61,173 bases of DNA from Candidatus Micrarchaeota archaeon (GCA_016212505.1 JACRGB010000046.1:1-61173); one strand, 5' to 3'; counted from the stretch's first letter, positions 297 to 48,547 are shown. Numbers and translations: made by a program. Notes: generated by a model not told the origin, from the letters alone.

Positions 297-1475
297 TCAC
301 TTTTCCACCTTGCCGCGTTTTCTAAGCAAATCCACATATAAGCGCACGGTCATATCTGCACTTTTTTCTATAGAATATTTTTCTGAGCTTCTTTGGCCCT
401 CCTTGCCCATTTTCGAGCGTAAATCATCATCCTCGAGCAGTTTTTCCATTGCTTTTGCAAATCTAGGGATATCGCCCGGACGGATCAGCAAACCTGTTTT
501 TCCATGTTCAATTACTTCTATAGGACCAAGCTTGCGGGCGGCAATTACCGGAATCCGGCAGTGCATTGCCTCAACAAAGGTAAGCCCGAAAGTCTCGCTA
601 TCCGATGCCGAAACGAAGACATCTGCAGAGCGATATGCCGCTCCAAGTTCAGATGATGGGACAAATCCAGTAAATACAATATTTTTTATCCCCAAGGCAT
701 GGGCAAGTTTCCTGAATTCTGAAACGTAAGGCCCGCCGCCAACTATAAGAAGAATGCGGTCAGGTGCTTCGACCAGGCTAAAAGCGTGTATGAGCTGGTC
801 GATCCGTTTCTCAAAACTTATCCTGCCCACATAAACAATGGTTTTCTTATTTTTGGGATTATACTTGCGCCTAAAAGCGCGGATTTGGTCGGCAGTGCAG
901 TCAAATTTGGAAAACTCGATCCCATTAAGCAGTAGAAGCGCGTTTTTGAGCCCGTAAGAGTTAAGTTCATCCACAAGCTTTTGTGTAGGCGCGGTGACGA
1001 TATCTGCCATTGTAAATGCGTGTTTTATGAGTTTTTTTACGGTGTAGTTGCTCAGTTCCTTAAGGAATGAAGGCAATTTGCGGTTCAAGAGGTGCGGAAC
1101 ATAATCCGGAAAATGGGTGTGGTAGGTTATTATGCAGGGCAGATTATGCTGCTTCGCCGCTATGACCCCCTGAAGGGCAAGAAGTACCGGTGCATGCGAA
1201 TGGACCAGATCAGGATTCTCTTTTTTTAGCAGGTCAGAGACTTTTTTGTAATTTATCGAAGAAATCCGATAACCACTATAGAATGGGAATGGTATCGAAT
1301 GGATCCAGTATATTTTGAAATTTTCCGAAAGCTGCTCCACCTTAAATGAGCCGCCACTTGGGGCAAAAAGTACGATCTGATGGTCCTTGGACAGTAATTT
1401 TATCAGGTCAACAAGGTAGGACACCACGCCATTTGTCTGTGGCAGGTAGGTATCAGTAAAGAAGGCGATTTTCAT
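297..1475 (-). CDS. Glycosyltransferase family 4 (GT-B)
   Basis: MKIAFFTDTYLPQTNGV N-terminus, HSHAP, YVGRISFEKRID, and the ETFGLTFVEAM GT4 signature. Start moved to ATG 1475 because the ORF-track extension runs into a hairpin array. Confidence 0.93.
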   Translation of the reverse strand: MKIAFFTDTYLPQTNGVVSYLVDLIKLLSKDHQIVLFAPSGGSFKVEQLSENFKIYWIHSIPFPFYSGYRISSINYKKVSDLLKKENPDLVHSHAPVLLALQGVIAAKQHNLPCIITYHTHFPDYVPHLLNRKLPSFLKELSNYTVKKLIKHAFTMADIVTAPTQKLVDELNSYGLKNALLLLNGIEFSKFDCTADQIRAFRRKYNPKNKKTIVYVGRISFEKRIDQLIHAFSLVEAPDRILLIVGGGPYVSEFRKLAHALGIKNIVFTGFVPSSELGAAYRSADVFVSASDSETFGLTFVEAMHCRIPVIAARKLGPIEVIEHGKTGLLIRPGDIPRFAKAMEKLLEDDDLRSKMGKEGQRSSEKYSIEKSADMTVRLYVDLLRKRGKVEK

Positions 1476-1488
1476 TTTTTCACCCAGA

Positions 1489-1740
1489 AAAAATGGAAAA
1501 ACTTGAACTTGTTCAAGCTGATTTTCATTTTCGACACCTCGAGGACAAAGTTTCACAAACTTTGTCCGCATTGGAATTATACAAATTCCAATACAAGGAC
1601 AAATTTCGCAAAATTTGTACGGTGGAAAAATTTAACGAATTTTTCCATAAGCGAACAAAGTTCGCTACTATTTGGAAATTCTCATAGAATTTACAAGACA
1701 AAAATGGAAAGATTTGAATGTAATTCAAATAGATTTTCAT
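1489..1740. repeat. Tandem hairpin array, family A copy 1, bounded by ~40-nt imperfect direct repeats
   Basis: Hairpins GGACAAAGTTT-cac-AAACTTTGTCC (1543-1567), ATTGGAATT-ataca-AATTCCAAT, ACAAATTT-cgca-AAATTTGT, GGAAAAATT-taacg-AATTTTTCC, GCGAAC-aaa-GTTCGC. Flanks AAAATGGAAA..TTGAA..TTCAA..GATTTTCAT at 1489-1528 and 1700-1740. Confidence 0.88.
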
Positions 1741-3066: not shown

Positions 3067-3146
3067 TTTGAAATTTTGAAAAAATTTCAAATAGGACAAA
3101 TTTTCGCAAAAATTTGTCCGCATGGTAAATTATCAAATTTACCATA
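3067..3146. repeat. Tandem hairpin array, family A copy 2
   Basis: TTTGAAATTT-tgaaa-AAATTTCAAA, GGACAAATTTT-cgc-AAAATTTGTCC, ATGGTAAATT..AATTTACCAT. Same GGACAAA..TTTGTCCGCAT module as 1543-1571. Confidence 0.82.
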
Positions 3147-3185
3147 CAATAAAAATTTATTATTAAAATATGAGGTGAAATTTTT

Positions 3186-3620
3186 ATGGCTATGTGGGAT
3201 TCTAAAAACAACAAGGAAACAACCGTTAGTGCTACTGGTTCTGAAGTAAAAAGTACCAATCCATTCTCAATTCAGCTGTCTTTCTCGCCGCTAAGGCTTT
3301 CGTCAAATAGGATGAATTCGATTAATCTGGTTGTCAGGGTCAAAAACATTTCAAACGAAGCGCAGCTAGTATCTGTTGATGCCATGCTTCCAAGAAATTG
3401 TATGCTTGGATTCGACCAAGCATGCATAAACAAAACAACTGAAAAGCGCAGCGGTGAACTGGCACCAGGTGCGTTCAAGGACGTCCAGATCGAGATCTGG
3501 GCAAATAACCAGACCAAAAGCGGAAATTACCCAGTGGAAGTAACTGCTTTTGCCCATTATGTCGGATATGAAAAAGTAATTGGATACATTAAGAAGGGGA
3601 CTTCACTGCGAGTAGTTTGA
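3186..3620 (+). CDS. Hypothetical protein, probable Ig-like beta-sandwich
   Basis: 144-aa ORF after GAGGTGA RBS. Alternating beta-strand pattern (LVVRVKN, VQIEIWA, YPVEVTA). Confidence 0.75.
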   Translation: MAMWDSKNNKETTVSATGSEVKSTNPFSIQLSFSPLRLSSNRMNSINLVVRVKNISNEAQLVSVDAMLPRNCMLGFDQACINKTTEKRSGELAPGAFKDVQIEIWANNQTKSGNYPVEVTAFAHYVGYEKVIGYIKKGTSLRVV

Positions 3621-7381: not shown

Positions 7382-7693
7382 TGTGACCGAAGAGACCCCA
7401 TGGCAAGAAACGCGCTAGCGTTTCTTGACTGTCGTGATCGAAGCGTCGATCACAACACTGCAAGCACTCGCCATTTGATGGCTTGTTCATGGCCGAAGTG
7501 TCGGCCATGGCACACACGCGAAATGCAGGGCATTTCGCTCGTGCGGTCGCTTCGCGACGTGGGGTACTTTGAGAACGACGATTCGTTCTCAAACCCTCAG
7601 GAACATTGGTAATGTTCCTGAAGTCCCTCATTCGGTCACAACTTTCCAAATTGGATCGCCGCAAGCGGCGGGGTATTCGACCCAATTTGGAAA
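7382..7693. repeat. Tandem hairpin array, family B copy 2, MITE-like with 10-bp terminal inverted repeats
   Basis: TGTGACCGAA (7382-7391) / TTCGGTCACA (7631-7640) enclose hairpins at 7404-7427, 7434-7453, 7488-7509, 7518-7538, 7568-7593 and 7597-7621. A further 12-bp stem follows (7643-7654/7682-7693). Confidence 0.9.
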
Positions 7694-7796
7694 TAAAATA
7701 ATACCTCATTTTTAAAATCTTCTTCAGAATATTAATTATCGAATTTTGAGTAAAATCAGAACTCTAGACTGTGAACCGGGAACAGAAAACATTACT

Positions 7797-7937
7797 GCTG
7801 GGGTCGCCTAGCCCGGTATGGCGGCAGGTTGCTAGTGCCTTTTAGTAAAAGGCACCCCAAAACGGGGTTGCTATTGCTAAGGCATGTGGAAACCTGTTGC
7901 GCGTGAGCGTTCGGGAGTTCAAATCTCCCCCCTAGCG
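7797..7937 (+). tRNA. trnS: tRNA-Ser(GCT) with 57-nt intron at 37/38 (7835-7891)
   Basis: Acceptor GCTGGGG/CCCTAGC, anticodon stem GCAGG/CCTGT, anticodon GCT at 7831-7833, long variable arm GCGC-GTGA-GCGT, T-arm GGGAG-TTCAAAT-CTCCC, discriminator G, no encoded CCA. Confidence 0.93.
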
Positions 7938-7997
7938 AACGAAGTGAGCTGGGGGGGTACTTGAACGAATCGTCGTTCAAGAAGACCCCCCTAGCGA
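7927..7997. repeat. 12-bp duplication of the tRNA-Ser 3' end around a hairpin insert
   Basis: CCCCCCTAGCGA at 7927-7938 and 7986-7997. Between them lie GCTGGGGGGG and TTGAACGA-atcg-TCGTTCAA. Confidence 0.8.
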
Positions 7998-15463: not shown

Positions 15464-16210
15464 TCATTTAATAGCTGATAAATCAACTTCAATGCCTTCG
15501 TGAGCCATTGAAAGGGCTAGAGTGTATTCTGCGCTATCTTTGGTAGTCTTAACAGTTACTTTTCTTCCCTCTAAGATAACGCATCCGTTGAAACCTTCCA
15601 CTGTAACTGAGATATCTTTGAATGGAATATTACAACTTCCAATAGAGCCTGCCAAAAGATCAGGGGATACTTCTGCACGTAGAGCAGCACCTACCTGCAG
15701 AACTTTTTTACCAAAGCCGGCTCTGAGATCTCTTGTGCTATTGTAAACCATATTCCTAAAATAATCAGTATGAAGATCGGGCAGAAAATCGCCAAAAAAT
15801 CTATCAAAATCCGAACCAATAGTGCGCCTAAACTCATCATCAGAAAAATGTTCTTTAGCTAGGACTTCTAACCTATCAAGAGACTCATTCGGAAGATAAG
15901 CAGCAAAAAGATGGAAACGAGATGAACCTGCCTCCATTATTATGATCGGATCCACATCAGTAGAATGTTGCCTAGGATAGCGTTTTTCATCAACAACAGT
16001 ATGGTCAAGATCTGCCGCTATCATCGCTTGAAGAAAGCCAATTCCACTTGCTCTTGCAAGAAAAGTACGAGCTGGATGGTTAGTTGGAGTAACTTTATTC
16101 ACCATTGCCCTTGCAAATCTCATATCCGCCCTACAATAAAGATATTTCATAATTTCCACCCAAACAGGATTTATGACCAAAACATTAATAACAAAACCTA
16201 ATTCGGCCAA
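15464..16210 (-). CDS. Hypothetical protein (ORFan)
   Basis: 248-aa ORF downstream of cdc6; start uncertain. Confidence 0.6.
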   Translation of the reverse strand: MAELGFVINVLVINPVWVEIMKYLYCRADMRFARAMVNKVTPTNHPARTFLARASGIGFLQAMIAADLDHTVVDEKRYPRQHSTDVDPIIIMEAGSSRFHLFAAYLPNESLDRLEVLAKEHFSDDEFRRTIGSDFDRFFGDFLPDLHTDYFRNMVYNSTRDLRAGFGKKVLQVGAALRAEVSPDLLAGSIGSCNIPFKDISVTVEGFNGCVILEGRKVTVKTTKDSAEYTLALSMAHEGIEVDLSAIK

Positions 16211-17439
16211 AGCAATTTATGCAAAATATCCTTTATCGACTTCGGGTCGCTACACATTTTTATCAAAGTGGTATGCCCGCGGATTCCTTTGCTGCTCGGG
16301 ATGGTACTAATAAGCCCAAGAACTTCCAGGTCATTAAGATATTCACGATACCAGCGTGTGCTCCTGGCCCTTTTCCCAAGCTTCTTGCAGGCACGTTCAT
16401 AATCTTCATAAACTTCCCCGGAAAATAGCAGTGCCCCTTCATCGCCACTATCCTTTTCCCGCTCCAACCGGGTGTATTTGCTTCCTGAAAGCGAAAGTGA
16501 AGCGATTGAATAGAGGACAATCTGGTGCATTTGCGGCAATGTGTTTATGGTTTCGGCAGTAAGGTCGAACTCAACTTTCTTTCGCGCGGCCTCAACTTCA
16601 GAATCGGAAATTTTCGTCTTATTTTCATGTTCTGCAAGTTCACCGGCCCGGTGCAAAAGCTTGAGGGCATAACGGGCATCGCCGGTTTCTTGGGACGTTA
16701 TCGCCGCGGCAAGGTTTATTGCGGAGGGGTCGACAACATTATCGACAAAACCTTCTTTCACGCGCTCGGAAAGTATCTTCTGAAGCTGCTCGGCAGAATA
16801 TGGTGGGAAAACCATTTCGGTCTCATATAAGCTGCTTCGGCTCCGCGGATCGAGCGCATCCTTAAACGAAAGCTTATTTGAAATGCCAATTATGCTAACC
16901 CCGCCATTTTGTATCTCATCGTTCGACCTGGTCAGGGTATAAACCAGTTCATCAAGGTCTTTTACCATATCAACTTCATCAAGGACAAGCACGATCTGCT
17001 GGCCACCAGAAGCGATTTCTATGAGTTTTTCATATAAGTAAGGGAGGCCAAACCCGGATTTTTCAAGCTCTGGAACGTAATTTTTCATTATTTTCTGTAA
17101 AATGCGGTAGCGTGAATTGTATATCCTGCAGTTGACATAATGCATGCTGCCATTTTTAGCAGCTTTGATAAATTCCTCCATAACATGCTTTACCGTACAG
17201 GTTTTTCCAGTCCCGGTTTTGCCGTAAATTATCAGGTTGCGGGGTTTCTGGCCACGAAGTGCAGAAGAAAGGATGGTCATTATTTCAGTTATCTGATGCT
17301 CGCGAAAGGGAAGGTCTTTTGGCACATAATGTGGAGATAGGACTGAGGCGTTGAGAAAGATAGATTTCTTTAGCATAACCTGATCAAAAGACGTCATAAA
17401 CTGCCCCTGAATTATTTTTAAATGATCTCTAAATGCCAT
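16198..17439 (-). CDS. cdc6: Orc1/Cdc6 replication initiator
   Basis: YVPKDLPFRE, Walker A GKTGTGKT, Walker B VLDEVD, sensor DARYAL, C-terminal wHTH. Confidence 0.96.
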   Translation of the reverse strand: MAFRDHLKIIQGQFMTSFDQVMLKKSIFLNASVLSPHYVPKDLPFREHQITEIMTILSSALRGQKPRNLIIYGKTGTGKTCTVKHVMEEFIKAAKNGSMHYVNCRIYNSRYRILQKIMKNYVPELEKSGFGLPYLYEKLIEIASGGQQIVLVLDEVDMVKDLDELVYTLTRSNDEIQNGGVSIIGISNKLSFKDALDPRSRSSLYETEMVFPPYSAEQLQKILSERVKEGFVDNVVDPSAINLAAAITSQETGDARYALKLLHRAGELAEHENKTKISDSEVEAARKKVEFDLTAETINTLPQMHQIVLYSIASLSLSGSKYTRLEREKDSGDEGALLFSGEVYEDYERACKKLGKRARSTRWYREYLNDLEVLGLISTIPSSKGIRGHTTLIKMCSDPKSIKDILHKLLWPN

Positions 17440-28864: not shown

Positions 28865-29854
28865 ATGCAATATCAGGCTCAAAAAGCAACCTCACCGATA
28901 AGTACCCTACAATTTAATGCCCGAGTACTCAATGCAAGGGATTTTGGGTTATTAGGCACAACTGATGGGATGATCGCAGCGATAAGAAAATTTCTTGCAA
29001 TAAATGAGCCTGAAAGGGCCCGAATTATTAAAATGGCCGTGACGTCCAAAGTAATAGAGGATGAGCACCCGTTTTCATACCGGTCGCTTTCATTCAAATT
29101 AGGTGCAATGGAAAAACTTCACGCGCTTCTTAGGCAAAATGGCCTACCATTACTTCCTAACCCCAGGACAATGAATAGTGGCGAGGAGAGCACCGAATGC
29201 ACATTTGAGGGAAATACATACATATTCAGTGAACCATTCGGATCAACAGGCAATTATTGTGCAACCTTTAGTGCCGCCTATGGAATAGAAGAAGATCAGG
29301 GGCTTCAAGTTCATGCAGTTTTTAATGGGGATAAGAATGAACAGGTGGTTGCTTCTGAAAAAGCAGCCGCAATGGTTGAATTTGCATGCAAGCTTGGATT
29401 AACTTATGATGTTAAGCACCTGATGTTGATCTTAGATGGGATGGATTTTGAGCTTAAGAGGATGAAGTTATGGGCCGAAGCGGCAATAATTAGCAGGTTT
29501 GGCAAAAAAGTCATATTAGTTGCTGCAGGAAATCTGCCAGTTTTGCTAGTTCGGGGGCGGGATTTGGGTATGCTCACTCAAATGACGCATCCACTTGGCC
29601 AGGTAAATGGTGATAAAGATCATTTTGGAAAAATGATAGAGGTTCAGGAAAAAGACGCCATTGTACTTGCGAGCAGAGGTTTTGTGAGGATGGGTGATGA
29701 GGAAGCAGTAGCAGATAAAATAGCCAGAAGGGTTAGCAAAGGATCAAGTATGATGGGTTTTGGTGGAGGATGGCTCCTAACGCGCGGGCAACTTATCGAA
29801 CGAAAACTTGATGAAGGATCCGGGGACGCGACAACAATAATCAGCTTCTTTTAA
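28865..29854 (+). CDS. Degenerate PPM/PP2C-like protein
   Basis: VHAVFNG, LVAAGNLPVLLVRG, IVLASRGF and GDATTII align by eye with PP2C motifs (aVxDG, vanvGDsr, llcSDGl, DNxTvi), but with Asp changed to Asn/Arg. Confidence 0.55.
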   Translation: MQYQAQKATSPISTLQFNARVLNARDFGLLGTTDGMIAAIRKFLAINEPERARIIKMAVTSKVIEDEHPFSYRSLSFKLGAMEKLHALLRQNGLPLLPNPRTMNSGEESTECTFEGNTYIFSEPFGSTGNYCATFSAAYGIEEDQGLQVHAVFNGDKNEQVVASEKAAAMVEFACKLGLTYDVKHLMLILDGMDFELKRMKLWAEAAIISRFGKKVILVAAGNLPVLLVRGRDLGMLTQMTHPLGQVNGDKDHFGKMIEVQEKDAIVLASRGFVRMGDEEAVADKIARRVSKGSSMMGFGGGWLLTRGQLIERKLDEGSGDATTIISFF

Positions 29855-30738
29855 GATTTGAACCCGGAGAGCCTGGATAAAATCAGTGGAAATGCAATCG
29901 TTGCATCGCAATCTACAGTAACGAATTTTGATTCTTCTTTTAGTTTTCCCCAGGAAATTGCTTCTTGTGTCCTGGCACCACTCAAACTACCATCCCAGGG
30001 ACCTGAGGTTGTAACATAGACAGCATAATCCAATCCGCCCCGTAGTATGTTAACAGCAATTGTATGGTGTTTTGATATTCCACCGCCCAAAACAATCGCG
30101 GCGGTCTTATCAGCATTAAGCACCAGCTGCGCCAGATCATTCATGTCTTTTGTGACATCAATGCCAAAATCTTTTTTCTTCTGCTTGAAAAAATAAGCCT
30201 GCAAGCCAATTGCCGAGTCGGTTATTCCGGGGCAGAAAACCGGAATCTTGTTTTTGTTAGCCCAATACAAGAATGAGTCGGATTTTGTTTTTTCGCCAAT
30301 TTTTCTTGCAATCTGGGAGGGCGATAGGATTTTTTCTTTTTCATAAAGTTCGGAAAATACATCCTGCATGAATTCTTCCAGATAAACATAGCATTCATTT
30401 GGAACCAGAATATTTCCTATTCTGTTCATGCTTTTTTGATGGAGAGCCTTATCATCCATCATAAAGTCTCCAAGCCCGTATTTCTTAGCAGATTTAATCA
30501 GGTCATGATCCAAACTTCCGCCAGCAGTTATTATGCAATCGATGAATTTTTCCTTGCATAATTCAGCAAAAAGGCCACGCAAGCCGGACGCAACCATATT
30601 CGAAGTAAACGAGAGGAAAATTGTTGCTTTTTCCTTTTTCATTTTCTTTATTATTTCAACTGCCCGTGATATTTGGGTTGCCTGGAAGCCGGTTGAGGTA
30701 AAGTCGAAATCTCCAGTTGATAAGTCCTTTATATTCAT
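29851..30738 (-). CDS. dys: Deoxyhypusine synthase
   Basis: GFQA, FTSNMVASG, RIGNILVP, GGGISKH, DGSLSGARTQEAISWGK. Confidence 0.95.
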   Translation of the reverse strand: MNIKDLSTGDFDFTSTGFQATQISRAVEIIKKMKKEKATIFLSFTSNMVASGLRGLFAELCKEKFIDCIITAGGSLDHDLIKSAKKYGLGDFMMDDKALHQKSMNRIGNILVPNECYVYLEEFMQDVFSELYEKEKILSPSQIARKIGEKTKSDSFLYWANKNKIPVFCPGITDSAIGLQAYFFKQKKKDFGIDVTKDMNDLAQLVLNADKTAAIVLGGGISKHHTIAVNILRGGLDYAVYVTTSGPWDGSLSGARTQEAISWGKLKEESKFVTVDCDATIAFPLILSRLSGFKS

Positions 30739-30800: not shown

Positions 30801-31034
30801 ATGGGAAAAACACTCAGGGTTTCTGAAGATACTTATGCATTGGTAATGGCTGCAGTAGGACAATCCCAGATAGAAAAGAGAAAAAAAGTCAGTGTGGATG
30901 AAGTGCTTAAGGAACATTTTTTAGAAGGAAGATTAAAATTCAAAAAAGACCCTAAAGCATGGGAAAAACTTGAAAAAATGATTTTTAAAGGCCCGAAAAA
31001 TATTGATTGCCTAGAAATTGATTTGCATCAGTGA
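30801..31034 (+). CDS. vapB: Antitoxin (VapB-like, RHH/CopG type)
   Basis: MGKTLRVSEDTYALV..SVDEVL; precedes a PIN gene. Confidence 0.8.
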   Translation: MGKTLRVSEDTYALVMAAVGQSQIEKRKKVSVDEVLKEHFLEGRLKFKKDPKAWEKLEKMIFKGPKNIDCLEIDLHQ

Positions 31035-31038
31035 GAGC

Positions 31039-31437
31039 ATGGTTCTTGTAGATTCCAATGTTTGGATTGGGTATTTCAATAGCAATGACAGACACCATGA
31101 AAAAGCCCTGCAAATTATTAGTTCTTTTCGAACAAATGGCGATAGGGAGATATACATAACTTCAGGAATCATCCATGAAGTGATAAATCATTTATTTAAG
31201 ATAAAGGGAAGCCAATTTGCACGAAAAACTTTAGAAACGGTTCTTAGCCTCCCGAATTTGCGTATTTTATTTTTGAGCGATAGTTTATGGCAAAGAACAA
31301 TTGAAAATTTCAACTTATATGAGATGGGGTTAACAGACGCACAGATTGTCTCAGTAATGGAAGAAAAAAAGGAAACCATACTTTATTCTTTTGATGGCCA
31401 TTTTGATCAGGTAAAATGGATTAAACGGGTTTTTTAA
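31039..31437 (+). CDS. vapC: PIN-domain toxin
   Basis: VLVDSNVWI, IHEVINHL, LTDAQIV, SFDGHF. Confidence 0.92.
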   Translation: MVLVDSNVWIGYFNSNDRHHEKALQIISSFRTNGDREIYITSGIIHEVINHLFKIKGSQFARKTLETVLSLPNLRILFLSDSLWQRTIENFNLYEMGLTDAQIVSVMEEKKETILYSFDGHFDQVKWIKRVF

Positions 31438-31968: not shown

Positions 31969-33060
31969 TCATTTCCCCAGTCTTTCAAGGACTGCTTTTA
32001 CAATCATTGGCCAGGCAATTGTTGCATCATCGAAAACTTCGACATACTTGCCACCTTCATTTTGCGGGACGATTTTACCCCAGCTCACTCCTTCGCTGTA
32101 GGTGCAACCGGATAATCCGCCCCAGTGAACAGGCTCTGGACAAATCCTAACTGCATAGGAATATCTTTTGAAATCGCCGCCATGGCCTATCCGGCTGTTG
32201 ATCAGGTCAAGATAGCAAGCACCTTGCTGGGCCCAATTTCTTGGAACGCCACCGCCAATTGTAAAGATACCGAGTTTTTTCGCGCTTCGCACCCGCTCGG
32301 TAAAGTGTTCTAAATCATAAAATGGGTTGAACATCAGGGGTTTTTTGCCTGATTCGACCCGTCTCCGATTATGTAGTGCCACATCCAAACCAACTTCTGA
32401 ATCAGTAAATGCAGGAATGTAAACAGGCACCTTTTTTTCATAGGCTGATTTGAGGATCCCCCTGCCTTTTGTTTTTTTAGCCAGATATTCTCCAAGAAGA
32501 TGGTTGATTTTTTGGCTGTATAAGACTTCATCATCCTTTGCCTTATCCAGAACCTCATCAACGATAAAAGATACATCATCCAGGTTTTTTTCTAATTCAA
32601 GCGTATCATAAACCCGATCGTACCCTTTTTCATAAAGCTCCTCATCTTCCATGTTCCAGGTATATTTGAAATGCCGCATTCCAACCGATTCGACAAATCC
32701 GTGTGCCTGGAGCGCGCCGGTACTGACAATTGCGTCAATTAGCCCATGGTCCATCATATCGCAGATGACCAAGCCCATTTTCGCAATGGTCATGGCACCA
32801 GAGAGTGTCAGGACCTTGAAACAATCCTTATCTTTTACCATTGCCTCAAGCACATCAGCTGCTTCACCAACATTTCGGGCTCCAAAAGCGCAGTTTTTCA
32901 TTCCCTTGACTAAATCGTCGACGGTTTTTACTTTGGATAAGTCCAATGGCTCTAACGGTTCGTAATGGTCCGAGTATCCAGTACCGAGCTGGCCGTGTTT
33001 TCGCTTATTTTCATCAGGATTATTTTGCATTTTTTCATGCGAATGATGTTTGTCTTTCAT
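31969..33060 (-). CDS. Deoxyhypusine synthase family protein (second paralogue)
   Basis: FGARNVGEA, TLSGAM, RVYD, PAFTDS, GGGVPRNW, WGGLSGCTYSEGVSWGK. Confidence 0.92.
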   Translation of the reverse strand: MKDKHHSHEKMQNNPDENKRKHGQLGTGYSDHYEPLEPLDLSKVKTVDDLVKGMKNCAFGARNVGEAADVLEAMVKDKDCFKVLTLSGAMTIAKMGLVICDMMDHGLIDAIVSTGALQAHGFVESVGMRHFKYTWNMEDEELYEKGYDRVYDTLELEKNLDDVSFIVDEVLDKAKDDEVLYSQKINHLLGEYLAKKTKGRGILKSAYEKKVPVYIPAFTDSEVGLDVALHNRRRVESGKKPLMFNPFYDLEHFTERVRSAKKLGIFTIGGGVPRNWAQQGACYLDLINSRIGHGGDFKRYSYAVRICPEPVHWGGLSGCTYSEGVSWGKIVPQNEGGKYVEVFDDATIAWPMIVKAVLERLGK

Positions 33061-36595: not shown

Positions 36596-36862
36596 GGGGT
36601 TATGGCGTAAGTGTTACCAGTTTTGAGTCTTGAGTTTTGTTTTTACAAAACGAAGCAAAACGGAAAACTCGAAACTGTGCACAGCGTGGCCAGGTAGCGC
36701 GGCAGTCTCCAGATCAACTCTCGCCTAAAACGGCGAGAAATTTAGCCGCGAAAACTGCATGTCGGAGTTCAAAAGAGTTTTCAGTCCTGTGTTTTGAGTC
36801 TTGACGAATCGTTCAAAACCCAAAACGGAAAACTGGAAACGCGGAAGTTCTCCGTGACCCCA
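36596..36862 (+). tRNA. trnW: tRNA-Trp(CCA) with three introns (about 36610-36688, 36713-36752, 36774-36848)
   Basis: Joined exons give 73 nt: GGGGTTATGGCGTA|GCCAGGTAGCGCGGCAGTCTCCAG|AACTGCATGTCGGAGTTCAAA|TCTCCGTGACCCCA. Acceptor GGGGTTA/TGACCCC, D stem GCGT/GCGC, anticodon stem GCAGT/ACTGC, T stem CGGAG/CTCCG. Intron 1 boundary was placed to keep A14; its BHB is weak. Confidence 0.88.
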
Positions 36863-46806: not shown

Positions 46807-47982
46807 ATGATAAAGCTTGAGCTGGACCGCAAAAAGCGCCTGATAATGGTTAAGGAGCCATCTGATGTCTCCTCATTGCAGAACGGTTTTTACGGCCAGA
46901 TGAAAAAAGGAATAATTTACCTATCCCCAGAAGAAGCGTTGTATGTGATGGATATTCGGAATGGAAAATGCTACGACGATGCTGGCAACCCGTTTACATT
47001 CAATGACATTGCCTCGCTATTTCTCAAAAACAAAAAATTGCTCGCCCGCTGCCTCACATATAAGGATTGGCGCGATAAAGGGCTGGTGCTTCGGTACATT
47101 AGCGAAGCAGAAGGTGGGTATGGCAGGACAGTTCTCAAAAAATACACGAGTGCGCCATTTAGGTTAGATGCTTTTGGTTTTGAAGGGTTATTTTTTCCCA
47201 ACGACCTTATTACAATGGTTGATGACCAAACGGTCGGGAAAGAGCTCTATGAGCGGTATTGGATCGGGCAGTTTGGAACCTATAAGGCATCCCATCGCGG
47301 GACAGTAGCCAAATATGATATTTATGAGACTATTTTCCTGCTAAAAAGCGGAAACCTCATGCTTAAGGGCTGTAACCTTGCAACCGTAGAGAAAGTTGCA
47401 AAGAAAAGGATCAAGTTCTTTGAGGATATTTACCTTGTTTACGAAGACTGGCGATCCCGCGGGTATGTGATTAAGACCGGCTTTAAGTTCGGGACGCATT
47501 TTCGGATTTATTTCCCTGGGGCTTCGCCAGTCCGAAGCGAAGACGAATGGATGCACTCGAAGCACGTTATCCATGTTTTCCCGAGGAAGCATAAACAGCT
47601 GATTTCGGAATGGGCCCGTGCGATCAGAGTGGCCCACTCGGTCAAGAAAACGTTCATCCTCGCGATTCCCGGAAAGAAAAAAGAAATCAAACTTAGCAAA
47701 ACCAGATCGCGGCTCGATTTTTTACTATACCATAGGAAGAAGGGCGGTATCGAAACGCCAAAAGACGGTTCGCCAAAATACCTGATGTATTCCCTGACCG
47801 AAGACGAATACATTGGTGGTGAAGAATTGTACGAAGCATTGGCAGAGTGCAAGCAGTTTGGTTTGGAAATGGTGGTTGCAATTAGTGATCGGGAGAGCAG
47901 CGTAACATATTATATAATTAAGGAATTGGAACTTCCTGGAAGCGAATATGAGTACTATGAGATTGAGTGGGTTCAGCCTTAA
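46807..47982 (+). CDS. endA: tRNA splicing endonuclease (multi-unit, epsilon-type size)
   Basis: LSPEEALY, YKDWRDKG, YEDWRSRGYVIKTGFKFGTHFRIY, HSKHV, AHSVKK (Tyr/His/Lys triad); 391 aa from ATG 46807 after GAGGTG. Confidence 0.93.
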   Translation: MIKLELDRKKRLIMVKEPSDVSSLQNGFYGQMKKGIIYLSPEEALYVMDIRNGKCYDDAGNPFTFNDIASLFLKNKKLLARCLTYKDWRDKGLVLRYISEAEGGYGRTVLKKYTSAPFRLDAFGFEGLFFPNDLITMVDDQTVGKELYERYWIGQFGTYKASHRGTVAKYDIYETIFLLKSGNLMLKGCNLATVEKVAKKRIKFFEDIYLVYEDWRSRGYVIKTGFKFGTHFRIYFPGASPVRSEDEWMHSKHVIHVFPRKHKQLISEWARAIRVAHSVKKTFILAIPGKKKEIKLSKTRSRLDFLLYHRKKGGIETPKDGSPKYLMYSLTEDEYIGGEELYEALAECKQFGLEMVVAISDRESSVTYYIIKELELPGSEYEYYEIEWVQP

Positions 47983-48041
47983 CTGAACCCACTGCCCACG
48001 AAAACCTGCGGGTTTTCATGGTTGAATGGGTTCAGCCGTAA
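47963..48041. repeat. Duplicated endA 3' end around a hairpin insert
   Basis: TTGAGTGGGTTCAGCCTTAA (47963-47982) vs TTGAATGGGTTCAGCCGTAA (48022-48041). Inverted copy CTGAACCCAC at 47983-47992. Confidence 0.8.
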
Positions 48042-48107: not shown

Positions 48108-48377
48108 ATGGTTAGAGCAAGTCACATATTGGTGGAAAATGAGCAATTGGCAAAAAAAATAAAGGGTGAGATACAAAGTGGTGCGGACTTTGCAAAAATG
48201 GCGAAAAAATATTCCATTTGCCCGAGCAAAGCCCAGGGCGGGGACCTTGGAGATTTCGGTAAGGGCCAGATGGTTAAGGAATTTGAAGATGCAGCATTTT
48301 CACTTCCCATTGGGATAGTATCGAACCCTGTGAAGACCGAATTTGGATATCATTTGATTATGGTCACTAAAAAGTAA
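48108..48377 (+). CDS. ppiC: Parvulin-type peptidyl-prolyl isomerase
   Basis: [47 protein letters not shown]. Confidence 0.95.
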
Positions 48378-48380
48378 AAA

Positions 48381-48480
48381 CAAGGACAAATTTGAAAAAT
48401 TTGTCCGTGGAGAAATTCGGAAGAATTTCTCCTGTAGCGAACCGATTTTCGCTACGAATTGGAATATACAAATTCCAATA
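48381..48480. repeat. Tandem hairpin array, family A copy 3
   Basis: GGACAAATTT-gaa-AAATTTGTCC, GGAGAAATTC-ggaa-GAATTTCTCC, GTAGCGAA-ccgatt-TTCGCTAC, ATTGGAAT-atacaa-ATTCCAAT. Collinear with about 1593-1680. Confidence 0.88.
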
Positions 48481-48547
48481 AGATAAAAATGGCATGGAAA
48501 AGCAGCCTTTTTAAGGCGTTTGACCCATGGATTGTAAGGGTGTGTGT

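Follow-up and report, generated by a model that had tools for sequence, protein, structure and literature searches.

Hairpin arrays in a Micrarchaeota contig are copies of a phylum-wide double-hairpin repeat that resembles DNA-level, REP-type elements

What kind of element builds the row of back-to-back hairpins that lies upstream of a glycosyltransferase gene in a stretch of Candidatus Micrarchaeota archaeon DNA (GCA_016212505.1, JACRGB010000046.1:1-61173), and does the pairing of its stems point to an RNA or to DNA? The whole 61,173-nt stretch, here called the window, had been described in a sequence-only reading as carrying three hairpin arrays with compensatory stem changes, and three options had been proposed: a structured non-coding RNA (ncRNA), a mobile element working through hairpins of single-stranded DNA (ssDNA), or palindromic protein-binding sites. 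Direct reading and a hairpin scan established that the arrays are real, and that all three are made of near-perfect hairpins set back to back, at 1543-1696 (copy 1), 3067-3149 (copy 2) and 48384-48479 (copy 3). Each hairpin is perfect or has one mismatch, with a stem of 7-11 bp, a loop of 3-6 nt and a spacer of 2-5 nt. The scan counted 62 perfect hairpins with a stem of at least 7 bp in the window, compared with 14-25 in shuffled sequence, and the pattern GGACAAA..TTTGTCC occurred three times against an expectation of 0. RNA folding of the three array regions relative to shuffles gave z-scores of -5.5, -7.5 and -3.0, the value for copy 3 being -7.5.

An order of four modules (GGACAAA, GGA(A/G)AAATT, (T)AGCGAA and TTGGAA) had been attributed to all three copies. 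It was present at 1597-1696 and 48384-48479, two segments that are colinear, linkers included, and whose stem differences are compensated, as in GGAAAAATT/AATTTTTCC of copy 1 versus GGAGAAATT/AATTTCTCC of copy 3. Copy 2 departs from this order and contains two of the four modules: it consists of a GGACAAA hairpin, a TGGTAAATT hairpin and an unrelated TTTGAAATTTT hairpin, and the GCGAA module is missing. Copy 1 is opened by an extra two-hairpin unit (1543-1596).

The basic element is an oriented unit of about 54-58 nt, composed of a first hairpin (GGACAAAKTT..AAMTTTGTCC, read as GGACAAATTT-loop-AAATTTGTCC), a GC linker, a second hairpin (AT(T)GGAA..-loop-..TTCCAAT, with compensated variants of ATTGGAA..TTCCAAT) and ACAA, followed by an A-rich run; units occur singly, in tandem or as a four-hairpin derivative, A-B-C-D. 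One genome per species (185,579 species) was scanned for the first-hairpin pattern GGACAAAKTT-N(3-8)-AAMTTTGTCC, which was found in at least 108 stretches, at least 37 of them from at least 20 metagenome-assembled genomes (MAGs) of Micrarchaeota type; among the matches listed, 33 of the 37 in this class were labelled Micrarchaeota, Micrarchaeia or Bilamarchaeaceae, and four were labelled only 'archaeon'. When these Micrarchaeota-type loci and the window were taken together, 29 of 41 GGACAAA hairpins had an intact second hairpin attached on one side. The GC linker was present in 24 of these 29 units and the ACAA tail in 18; an A stood at position -1 in 24, and CAA was the commonest 5' flank (7/29). 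None of the 71 bacterial matches listed had the second hairpin, most of them resembling ordinary terminators with adjoining T-runs, and a scan of viral contigs yielded four matches, none with a second hairpin. The window arrays are thus members of a family that is spread through the phylum, and further copies were also found elsewhere in this genome.

Some of the other MAGs carry at least 3-5 loci each, and tandem arrays in other genomes repeat the succession of type-1 hairpin, GC, type-2 hairpin and ACAA, with stems that differ between neighbouring units yet stay complementary around an unchanged loop, e.g. GGACAAATTTC and TGAAAAACTTC. Unit sub-families are marked by CCAGAG, CGCA and TCGA loops. 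Sequence conservation is phylum-wide in the type-1 foot (GGACAAA/TTTGTCC), in both linkers (GC and ACAA) and in much of the type-2 hairpin, so that the earlier statement that structure is conserved rather than sequence is right only in part. A match to the composite of copy 3 was found in archaeon DeMMO3_33 (L062:3826-3943, minus strand), with 80% identity over 120 nt, flanks AAAAACRA and AAGATAAAAA included, between two convergent genes unrelated to those at copy 3; coding DNA common to the window and two other relatives (L109 and L110) aligns at only 63-69%. A metagenome scan for the A-B junction yielded a single relevant locus, with a partial four-hairpin composite (L125). The other seven junction matches (L120-L124, L126 and L127, contigs of the Joint Genome Institute, JGI) belong to an unrelated conserved repeat of about 200 nt, which begins ..CAAATTTcgtgAAATTTGtccgacgagaaat.. 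and comes from two or three samples.

Covariation was assessed on an alignment of 29 units (A1) whose secondary structure was supplied by hand, because RNAalifold on a MAFFT alignment recovered hairpin A only, with the arms of the second hairpin out of register. In A1, 95.4% of the cells were paired and nine pairs showed double-sided changes (43 cells), a level reached by none of 500 shuffles, and slid controls collapsed. The covariation of the family is statistically real, yet in a DNA palindrome it is no proof by itself of a selected RNA fold. All changes in the main helices (1 and 3) were from one Watson-Crick pair to another, with no one-sided (G-U) change in about 560 cells, and the type-2 stems vary freely between copies. 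A mismatch of two purines, conserved at a single stem position of the second hairpin, was the sole recurrent non-pair; it is also seen in the window as the G.A-type mismatch of hairpin D' (1672-1696), at the same stem position as in hairpins of other genomes. A census of 202 hairpins in all the Micrarchaeota DNA collected for the analysis gave 117 single mismatches (G.T, n = 18; A.C, n = 27; other, n = 72), with no excess of wobble pairs. In the GTAG family of bacterial repetitive extragenic palindromes (REPs), G-T pairs are frequent and have been taken as a sign of RNA function (PMC3733652); this sign is absent from the Micrarchaeota units. A search of the whole window against Rfam 15 gave no match at gathering thresholds, and at E-values up to 1 only microRNA, small nucleolar RNA and riboswitch models appeared, far below their gathering scores.

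Copy number was examined in the metagenome run from which the genome derives. The contig depth summed over units, that of copy 2 included, was 68-128x versus a baseline of 15-16x, showing that the repeat is multi-copy; several contigs at about 16x, the depth of the genome itself, had partial unit matches, and assembler contigs break inside units. No empty-site allele of the window loci was found, and contigs of the same study contained no such joints. The gene order around copies 1 and 2 (winged helix-turn-helix gene, 144-aa gene, uncharacterised gene B, GT4 glycosyltransferase, DUF460 and TFIIE-alpha) is kept in L109 and L110, where gene B and GT4 are separated by 12 and 42 nt; in the window this spacer has 268 nt. 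The divergent spacer measures 290 nt in the window and 91 nt in L109. At neither of these loci was a unit detected with R1, a covariance model derived from the family, and the comparison points to an insertion of copy 1 at the junction of gene B and GT4.

Presence and absence of a unit between relatives was also seen behind the EF-1alpha gene. In L129 this gene is followed by a 54-nt unit (R1, 70.9 bits), while four loci with EF-1alpha 91-93% identical (L131-L134) gave no R1 match. One of these, L132, keeps both the T-rich left flank of L129 and the conserved right flank TAAGGCTCACGCTGA.., which lie about 60 nt closer together there. The junction of this filled/empty pair, a single case, is ambiguous by 3 nt (TTG) and has no longer duplication. 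The right flank belongs to a conserved block downstream of EF-1alpha (TAAGGCTCACGCTGA .. GGTAGAAATCCCCTGGTCGGAGGATTTC .. GAGTGGGAGGATAA ..; L129:2567-2760 and the matching parts of L131-L134) that has no Rfam match and could represent either an RNA not yet described or the 3' part of the adjacent minus-strand gene.

The orientation of the units is independent of that of the flanking genes. Units are sense or antisense (copy 1 antisense, copy 3 sense), and were found in tandem, divergent and convergent gene spacers as well as behind a terminator (L129). The observation that all three window copies lie upstream of a gene start was borne out (starts at 1475, minus strand; 3186, plus; 48527, plus), but such a position is not general in the family, given that the L062 composite lies between convergent gene ends and the L129 unit after a terminator. 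In the seven within-contig comparisons that were possible all units were co-oriented, as would be expected from an orientation set by replication and not by transcription. An ORF-based (open reading frame) census of coding versus intergenic positions was uninformative, because the arrays are overlain by spurious ORFs and hairpins had been the criterion for choosing the bacterial loci.

From the set of options offered by the sequence-only reading, the further copies, the gain and loss of units and the filling by copy 1 of a junction that is 12-42 nt long in relatives favor the mobile element, while an ncRNA and an operator in duplex DNA fare worse. The arrays are probably pile-ups of a non-autonomous, DNA-level mobile or selfish repeat of the Micrarchaeota, similar to REPs or to palindrome-associated transposable elements (PATEs), a reading to which we assign a probability of roughly 0.62. 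The unit would be copied or moved as ssDNA, its two hairpins being read by their stem foot and linkers by a putative structure-specific enzyme, encoded elsewhere and acting in trans, by analogy with the Y1/HUH transposases that act on REPs or on the ends of IS200/IS605 elements. Only copies with fully Watson-Crick stems would stay competent for propagation; alternatively, templated repair of quasi-palindromes within a strand could keep the arms identical, and both routes would lead to 'compensatory' changes in the stems with no function at the RNA level. Insertions would survive only in the short gene-boundary spacers of compact genomes.

Several observations weigh against this interpretation. 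Among the approximately 55 ORFs of the window, Pfam recognised housekeeping genes only and no transposase, HUH protein (RAYT, the Y1 HUH enzyme of REPs, included) or recombinase. The sequence is conserved phylum-wide next to ribosome-binding sites, which a host function could explain equally, and the hairpin pair of a unit is dissimilar in sequence, whereas at IS200/IS605 ends the left hairpin is nearly identical to the right one. The best database homologue of gene B is only 42% identical and the window genome has no close relative, so insertion at the three window sites is deduced from distant synteny rather than from an empty allele. No polymorphism was detected among near-identical strains in the FtsZ spacer of L089 (three strains), and the EF-1alpha spacer of L063 was identical in a Logan contig. 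Finally, the co-orientation of units is based on seven comparisons only.

The same data were confronted with the view that the units are cis-acting RNA elements, transcribed with their neighbours and serving in the protection of mRNA ends, operon processing or translation control through a conserved RNA-binding protein. The very stable RNA folds (z = -5.5 and -7.5) are what this view predicts, as is the location of the three window copies, and of several elsewhere, upstream of a ribosome-binding site and start codon at a distance of between a few and about 50 nt; copies 1 and 3 have co-directional genes on either side and probably undergo transcription. Independence from gene orientation is not fatal to it, since palindromic hairpins fold on either transcript, and conservation across deeply diverged genomes needs selection or transfer. 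It is nevertheless unlikely. Functional RNA helices commonly contain G-U or G-T pairs, and so do even the bacterial GTAG REPs (PMC3733652), whereas the units have no G-U among their paired cells and no wobble excess in the mismatches of the census. Units are found in divergent spacers just as in convergent spacers and behind terminators; the unit is dispensable in close relatives (L129 versus L131-L134), and the B-GT4 junction of relatives works with 12-42 nt. The absence of an Rfam match, the lack of G-U in covarying stems and the lack of a fixed orientation to genes all make an ncRNA less likely.

Strictly Watson-Crick complementarity is also what a DNA-level signal would show, and the units could mark gene boundaries as sites for a host protein, either a regulator or a factor of the nucleoid, of replication or of recombination that binds cruciforms or hairpins. 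The conserved stem feet and linkers, the co-orientation of units along a contig whatever the gene strand, and the location of the arrays in a core housekeeping region agree with such a role. However, the conserved feet GGACAAA and TTTGTCC occur in hairpins A of 23, 24, 25, 26, 27 and 28 nt in total, a variation in half-site spacing of up to 5 bp that is a misfit for a dimer on B-form duplex DNA and fits the recognition of a folded strand. The free differences between second-hairpin stems, the gain or loss of units between relatives, the modest copy number per genome and the lack of conserved positions make a host-protein site very unlikely, and no candidate for the binding protein emerged. A purely local origin, in which template switching or slippage in AT-rich spacers generates palindromes, similar stems arise by convergence and nothing spreads, would account for the perfect stems, for the many different hairpin sequences of the window and for the local palindromes and duplications made from target sequence where GT4 starts and where endA and tRNA-Ser end. 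Convergence cannot explain, though, why at least 20 assemblies contain the 54-58-nt composite with its loops, linkers and conserved stem mismatch unchanged, nor why the four-hairpin composite is 80% identical at unrelated loci of two genomes; for family A, as we call the repeat studied here, local genesis is hardly credible and largely refuted, but it may remain valid for the small hairpins, derived from the target, of the direct repeats that bracket copy 1.

Four other candidates were tried and rejected. H/ACA guide RNAs were considered because an ACA follows each second hairpin, but the stems are perfect helices of 8-12 bp with no pocket or K-turn. For mini-ORB origin boxes, the CCAGAG loop proved lineage-specific, and a CRISPR-like array was discarded for want of unique spacers set between copies of a constant repeat. 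A common 13-mer, AAAGTTTCACAAA, had suggested that family A is linked to the tRNA introns of the window; by a rough estimate it is within chance for AT-rich sequence, and R1 found no unit in the intron-bearing tRNA loci.

The nearest analogue of the repeat is the bacterial REPs. REP, BIME and REPIN elements (PMC3733652, PMC3337134) are likewise short extragenic palindromic hairpins in multiple copies, often in intergenic arrays, with lineage-specific sub-families, complementary stem substitutions and no coding capacity, and recognition as an ssDNA hairpin is presumed for both. The window shows this clustering of multi-copy extragenic palindromes, with three loci in 61 kb and tandem arrays. Bacterial REPs, BIMEs and REPINs are mobilised by RAYT Y1-HUH transposases and include GTAG- and CGTC-tagged families (PMC3733652, PMC3337134), the CGTC type being, like the Micrarchaeota repeat, without an identified transposase. 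Neither tag was present in the alignment of 29 units, which have the ends (A)GGAC.. and ..ACAA. The repeat also differs from REPs in its host, an archaeal lineage of the DPANN group; in its unit, an oriented pair of two unlike hairpins with GC and ACAA linkers; in its AT-rich, strictly Watson-Crick stems, as opposed to the common G-T pairs of GTAG REPs (PMC3733652); and in the conservation of its sequence over a whole phylum and not just a genus.

Among ssDNA elements, PATEs and miniature derivatives of IS200/IS605 have IS608 and ISDra2 as their mechanistic models. The repeat resembles PATEs in being built on hairpins without terminal inverted repeats, in the lack of a long target duplication in the single filled/empty comparison (L129 versus L132), in a unit end (..CAA) that resembles the commonest 5' flank, and in its co-orientation along contigs, as expected for ssDNA insertion at replication forks. 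The unit, however, has about 55 nt rather than a few hundred, only a weak preference for a target is seen (CAA in 7/29, A at -1 in 24/29), and its two hairpins are unlike (GGACAAATTT versus ATTGGAAT), which speaks against membership. Classical MITEs (miniature transposable elements with inverted repeats) differ from the repeat, whose ends are not inverted copies of each other and whose flanks have no fixed-length duplication; the long variable repeats at copy 1 are no MITE duplication, because they belong to separate target-derived hairpins.

The double-hairpin elements known from the mitochondrial genomes of fungi, like the Rickettsia palindromic elements (RPEs), are also tiny two-hairpin or palindromic modules that spread within compact genomes and are tolerated at gene boundaries, and we know of no enzyme for either. 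They differ in sequence and domain of life, and the window copies of family A are all intergenic, whereas RPEs typically lie in frame inside genes. With intrinsic terminators the repeat shares, by chance, an identical GGACAAAKTT..AAMTTTGTCC hairpin at 71 or more bacterial loci, mostly beside T-runs; in the Micrarchaeota this hairpin is followed by GC, the second hairpin, ACAA and an A-run, with no T-run, copy 2 lies in a divergent promoter spacer, and L132 keeps its T-run without a unit. In the literature searched, no description of such repeats in Micrarchaeota or DPANN was found; the single mention of DPANN in a MITE census of 2024 concerns Altiarchaeum and a Woesearchaea genome.

At the sequence level, copy 1 comprises six hairpins (1543-1567, 1570-1592, 1597-1620, 1623-1647, 1650-1666 and 1672-1696) grouped in two parts. 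The double-hairpin unit 1a (1543-1596, plus strand) reads GGACAAAGTTT-cac-AAACTTTGTCC, GC, ATTGGAATT-ataca-AATTCCAAT, ACAA; it scored 71.3 bits with R1 (E = 6.5e-13) and is also a row of A1. It is followed by the four-hairpin composite 1b, A'-B-C-D' (1597-1696, plus strand), which reads GGACAAATTT..GTaC, TGGAAAAATT.., AGCGAAC.., TTGGAAATTCT..TTTaCAA. Copy 2 has three hairpins (3067-3091, 3094-3119 and 3122-3145), of which the extra perfect hairpin at 3067-3091 (no strand assigned; TTTGAAATTTT-gaa-AAAATTTCAAA) directly precedes a double-hairpin unit (3094-3149, plus strand; GGACAAATTTT-cgca-AAAATTTGTCC, GC, ATGGTAAATT-atca-AATTTACCAT, ACAA) with the top R1 score of all (83.4 bits). Copy 3, with four hairpins (48384-48406, 48409-48432, 48434-48455 and 48458-48479), is a composite A-B-C-D that with its conserved flanks extends over 48376-48489 (plus strand); its A+B part scored 47.4 bits with R1.

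All three copies lie in the core housekeeping region identified by Pfam. Copy 1 is on the non-coding strand between two minus-strand genes, gene B (1744-2895, 383 aa, stop codon at 1744-1746) and the GT4 glycosyltransferase (Pfam Glyco_transf_4 and Glycos_transf_1), copy 2 in the divergent spacer between gene B and the 144-aa gene (3186-3620), and copy 3 between a PpiC-type rotamase gene (stop codon at 48375-48377) and the next plus-strand gene. The true GT4 start is the ATG at 1475 (codon 1475-1473, minus strand), with the translation MKIAFFTDTYLPQTNGV, in agreement with the gene starts of relatives. The arrays also create spurious ORFs, namely a 71-aa ORF (1525-1740, minus strand) and a 32-codon 5' extension (1476-1571, minus strand) of the GT4 ORF at 297-1571.

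Copy 1 is bracketed by imperfect direct repeats of about 40 nt, as had been noticed, with some 33 of 43 positions in agreement by eye between 1489-1531 and 1701-1743. They hold copies of the 5' end of GT4 (1467-1478, minus strand, ATGAAAATCGCC..), a 'target' sequence T that is repeated twice upstream. Repeat a (1489-1531) is an extended hairpin formed by ATGGAAAA, an inner CTTGAAC-ttg-GTTCAAG and then GATTTTCAT, so that it ends in a copy of the gene start; repeat b (1700-1743) is built alike around an inner ATTTGAAT-gta-ATTCAAAT, has GATTTTCAT as its end and adjoins the gene B stop directly; neither is assigned a strand. Identity was 89% between 1489-1507 and 1700-1718 and 82% between 1512-1528 and 1724-1740. 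The motif GATTTTCAT, the reverse complement of the GT4 gene start ATGAAAATC, is found three times, at 1467-1475 (the true start), 1520-1528 and 1732-1740. The target-derived arms of the two repeats are identical and their inner hairpins only about half identical, suggesting two events of the same kind rather than one duplication. It was apparently through these separate small hairpins that the GT4 start was rebuilt and duplicated (three copies of ATGAAAATC), whereby the gene would have kept its ribosome-binding site and start codon.

The layout of target, inverted target, small hairpin and target again was also observed at the end of endA, a gene at 46798-47982, where the last codons are duplicated (IEWVQP* then VEWVQP*, window 47963-48041), and after tRNA-Ser, whose 3' end CCCCCCTAGCGA occurs twice (7927-7997). 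After tRNA-Arg there is a hairpin and a repeated target, the 3' end CGGGCCCG occurring twice (41432-41518), with no clear inverted copy. A CTTGAAC..GTTCAAG hairpin is found at 1502-1519, 1712-1730 and 7960-7981.

A more far-reaching interpretation, which we regard as quite unlikely, is that the feet and linkers (GGACAAA/TTTGTCC, GC and ACAA) form a phylum-wide code for a conserved putative Micrarchaeota enzyme acting on folded single strands, the units being a domesticated or symbiotic system. Candidates would be a replication-fork-associated ssDNA nuclease or a transposase of a new kind or, at the RNA level, the relaxed-specificity splicing endonuclease of the window. If so, the units would be more than decaying junk: the system would insert at gene boundaries, regenerate gene starts and ends (GT4 start, endA end, tRNA ends) and supply tRNA introns.

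The window has other features of its own. A second set of hairpin arrays, more GC-rich and called family B, lies at 1-295 and 7382-7693, with a common module CAAGAAACGC..GCGTTTCTTG at 106-128 and 7404-7427. ARAGORN detected no tRNA gene in the 61 kb, and tRNA-like genes with several introns, missed by standard tRNA finders, are visible (e.g. 7795-7940, 36596-36862 and 41141-41439). An Orc1/Cdc6 gene is located at 16201-17439 (minus strand), which makes it possible that one of the spacers nearby contains a replication origin, and two deoxyhypusine synthase paralogues (29854-30738 and 31972-33060, both minus strand) flank a PIN-domain gene (31018-31434).

Micrarchaeota genomes have about 1 Mb and are under strong pressure to stay small, and much of the longer non-coding DNA of the window consists of hairpin modules of a family shared by the phylum. 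The units break assemblies, create spurious ORFs and mimic RNA covariation, and should be masked in annotation and in ncRNA screens. The repeat apparently is an undescribed archaeal counterpart of the bacterial selfish repeats of REP/MITE type and not an RNA gene; if the units are mobile, they would represent a new way of moving DNA hairpins in archaea, tolerated at gene boundaries, and their foot sequences would offer a handle for finding the enzyme.

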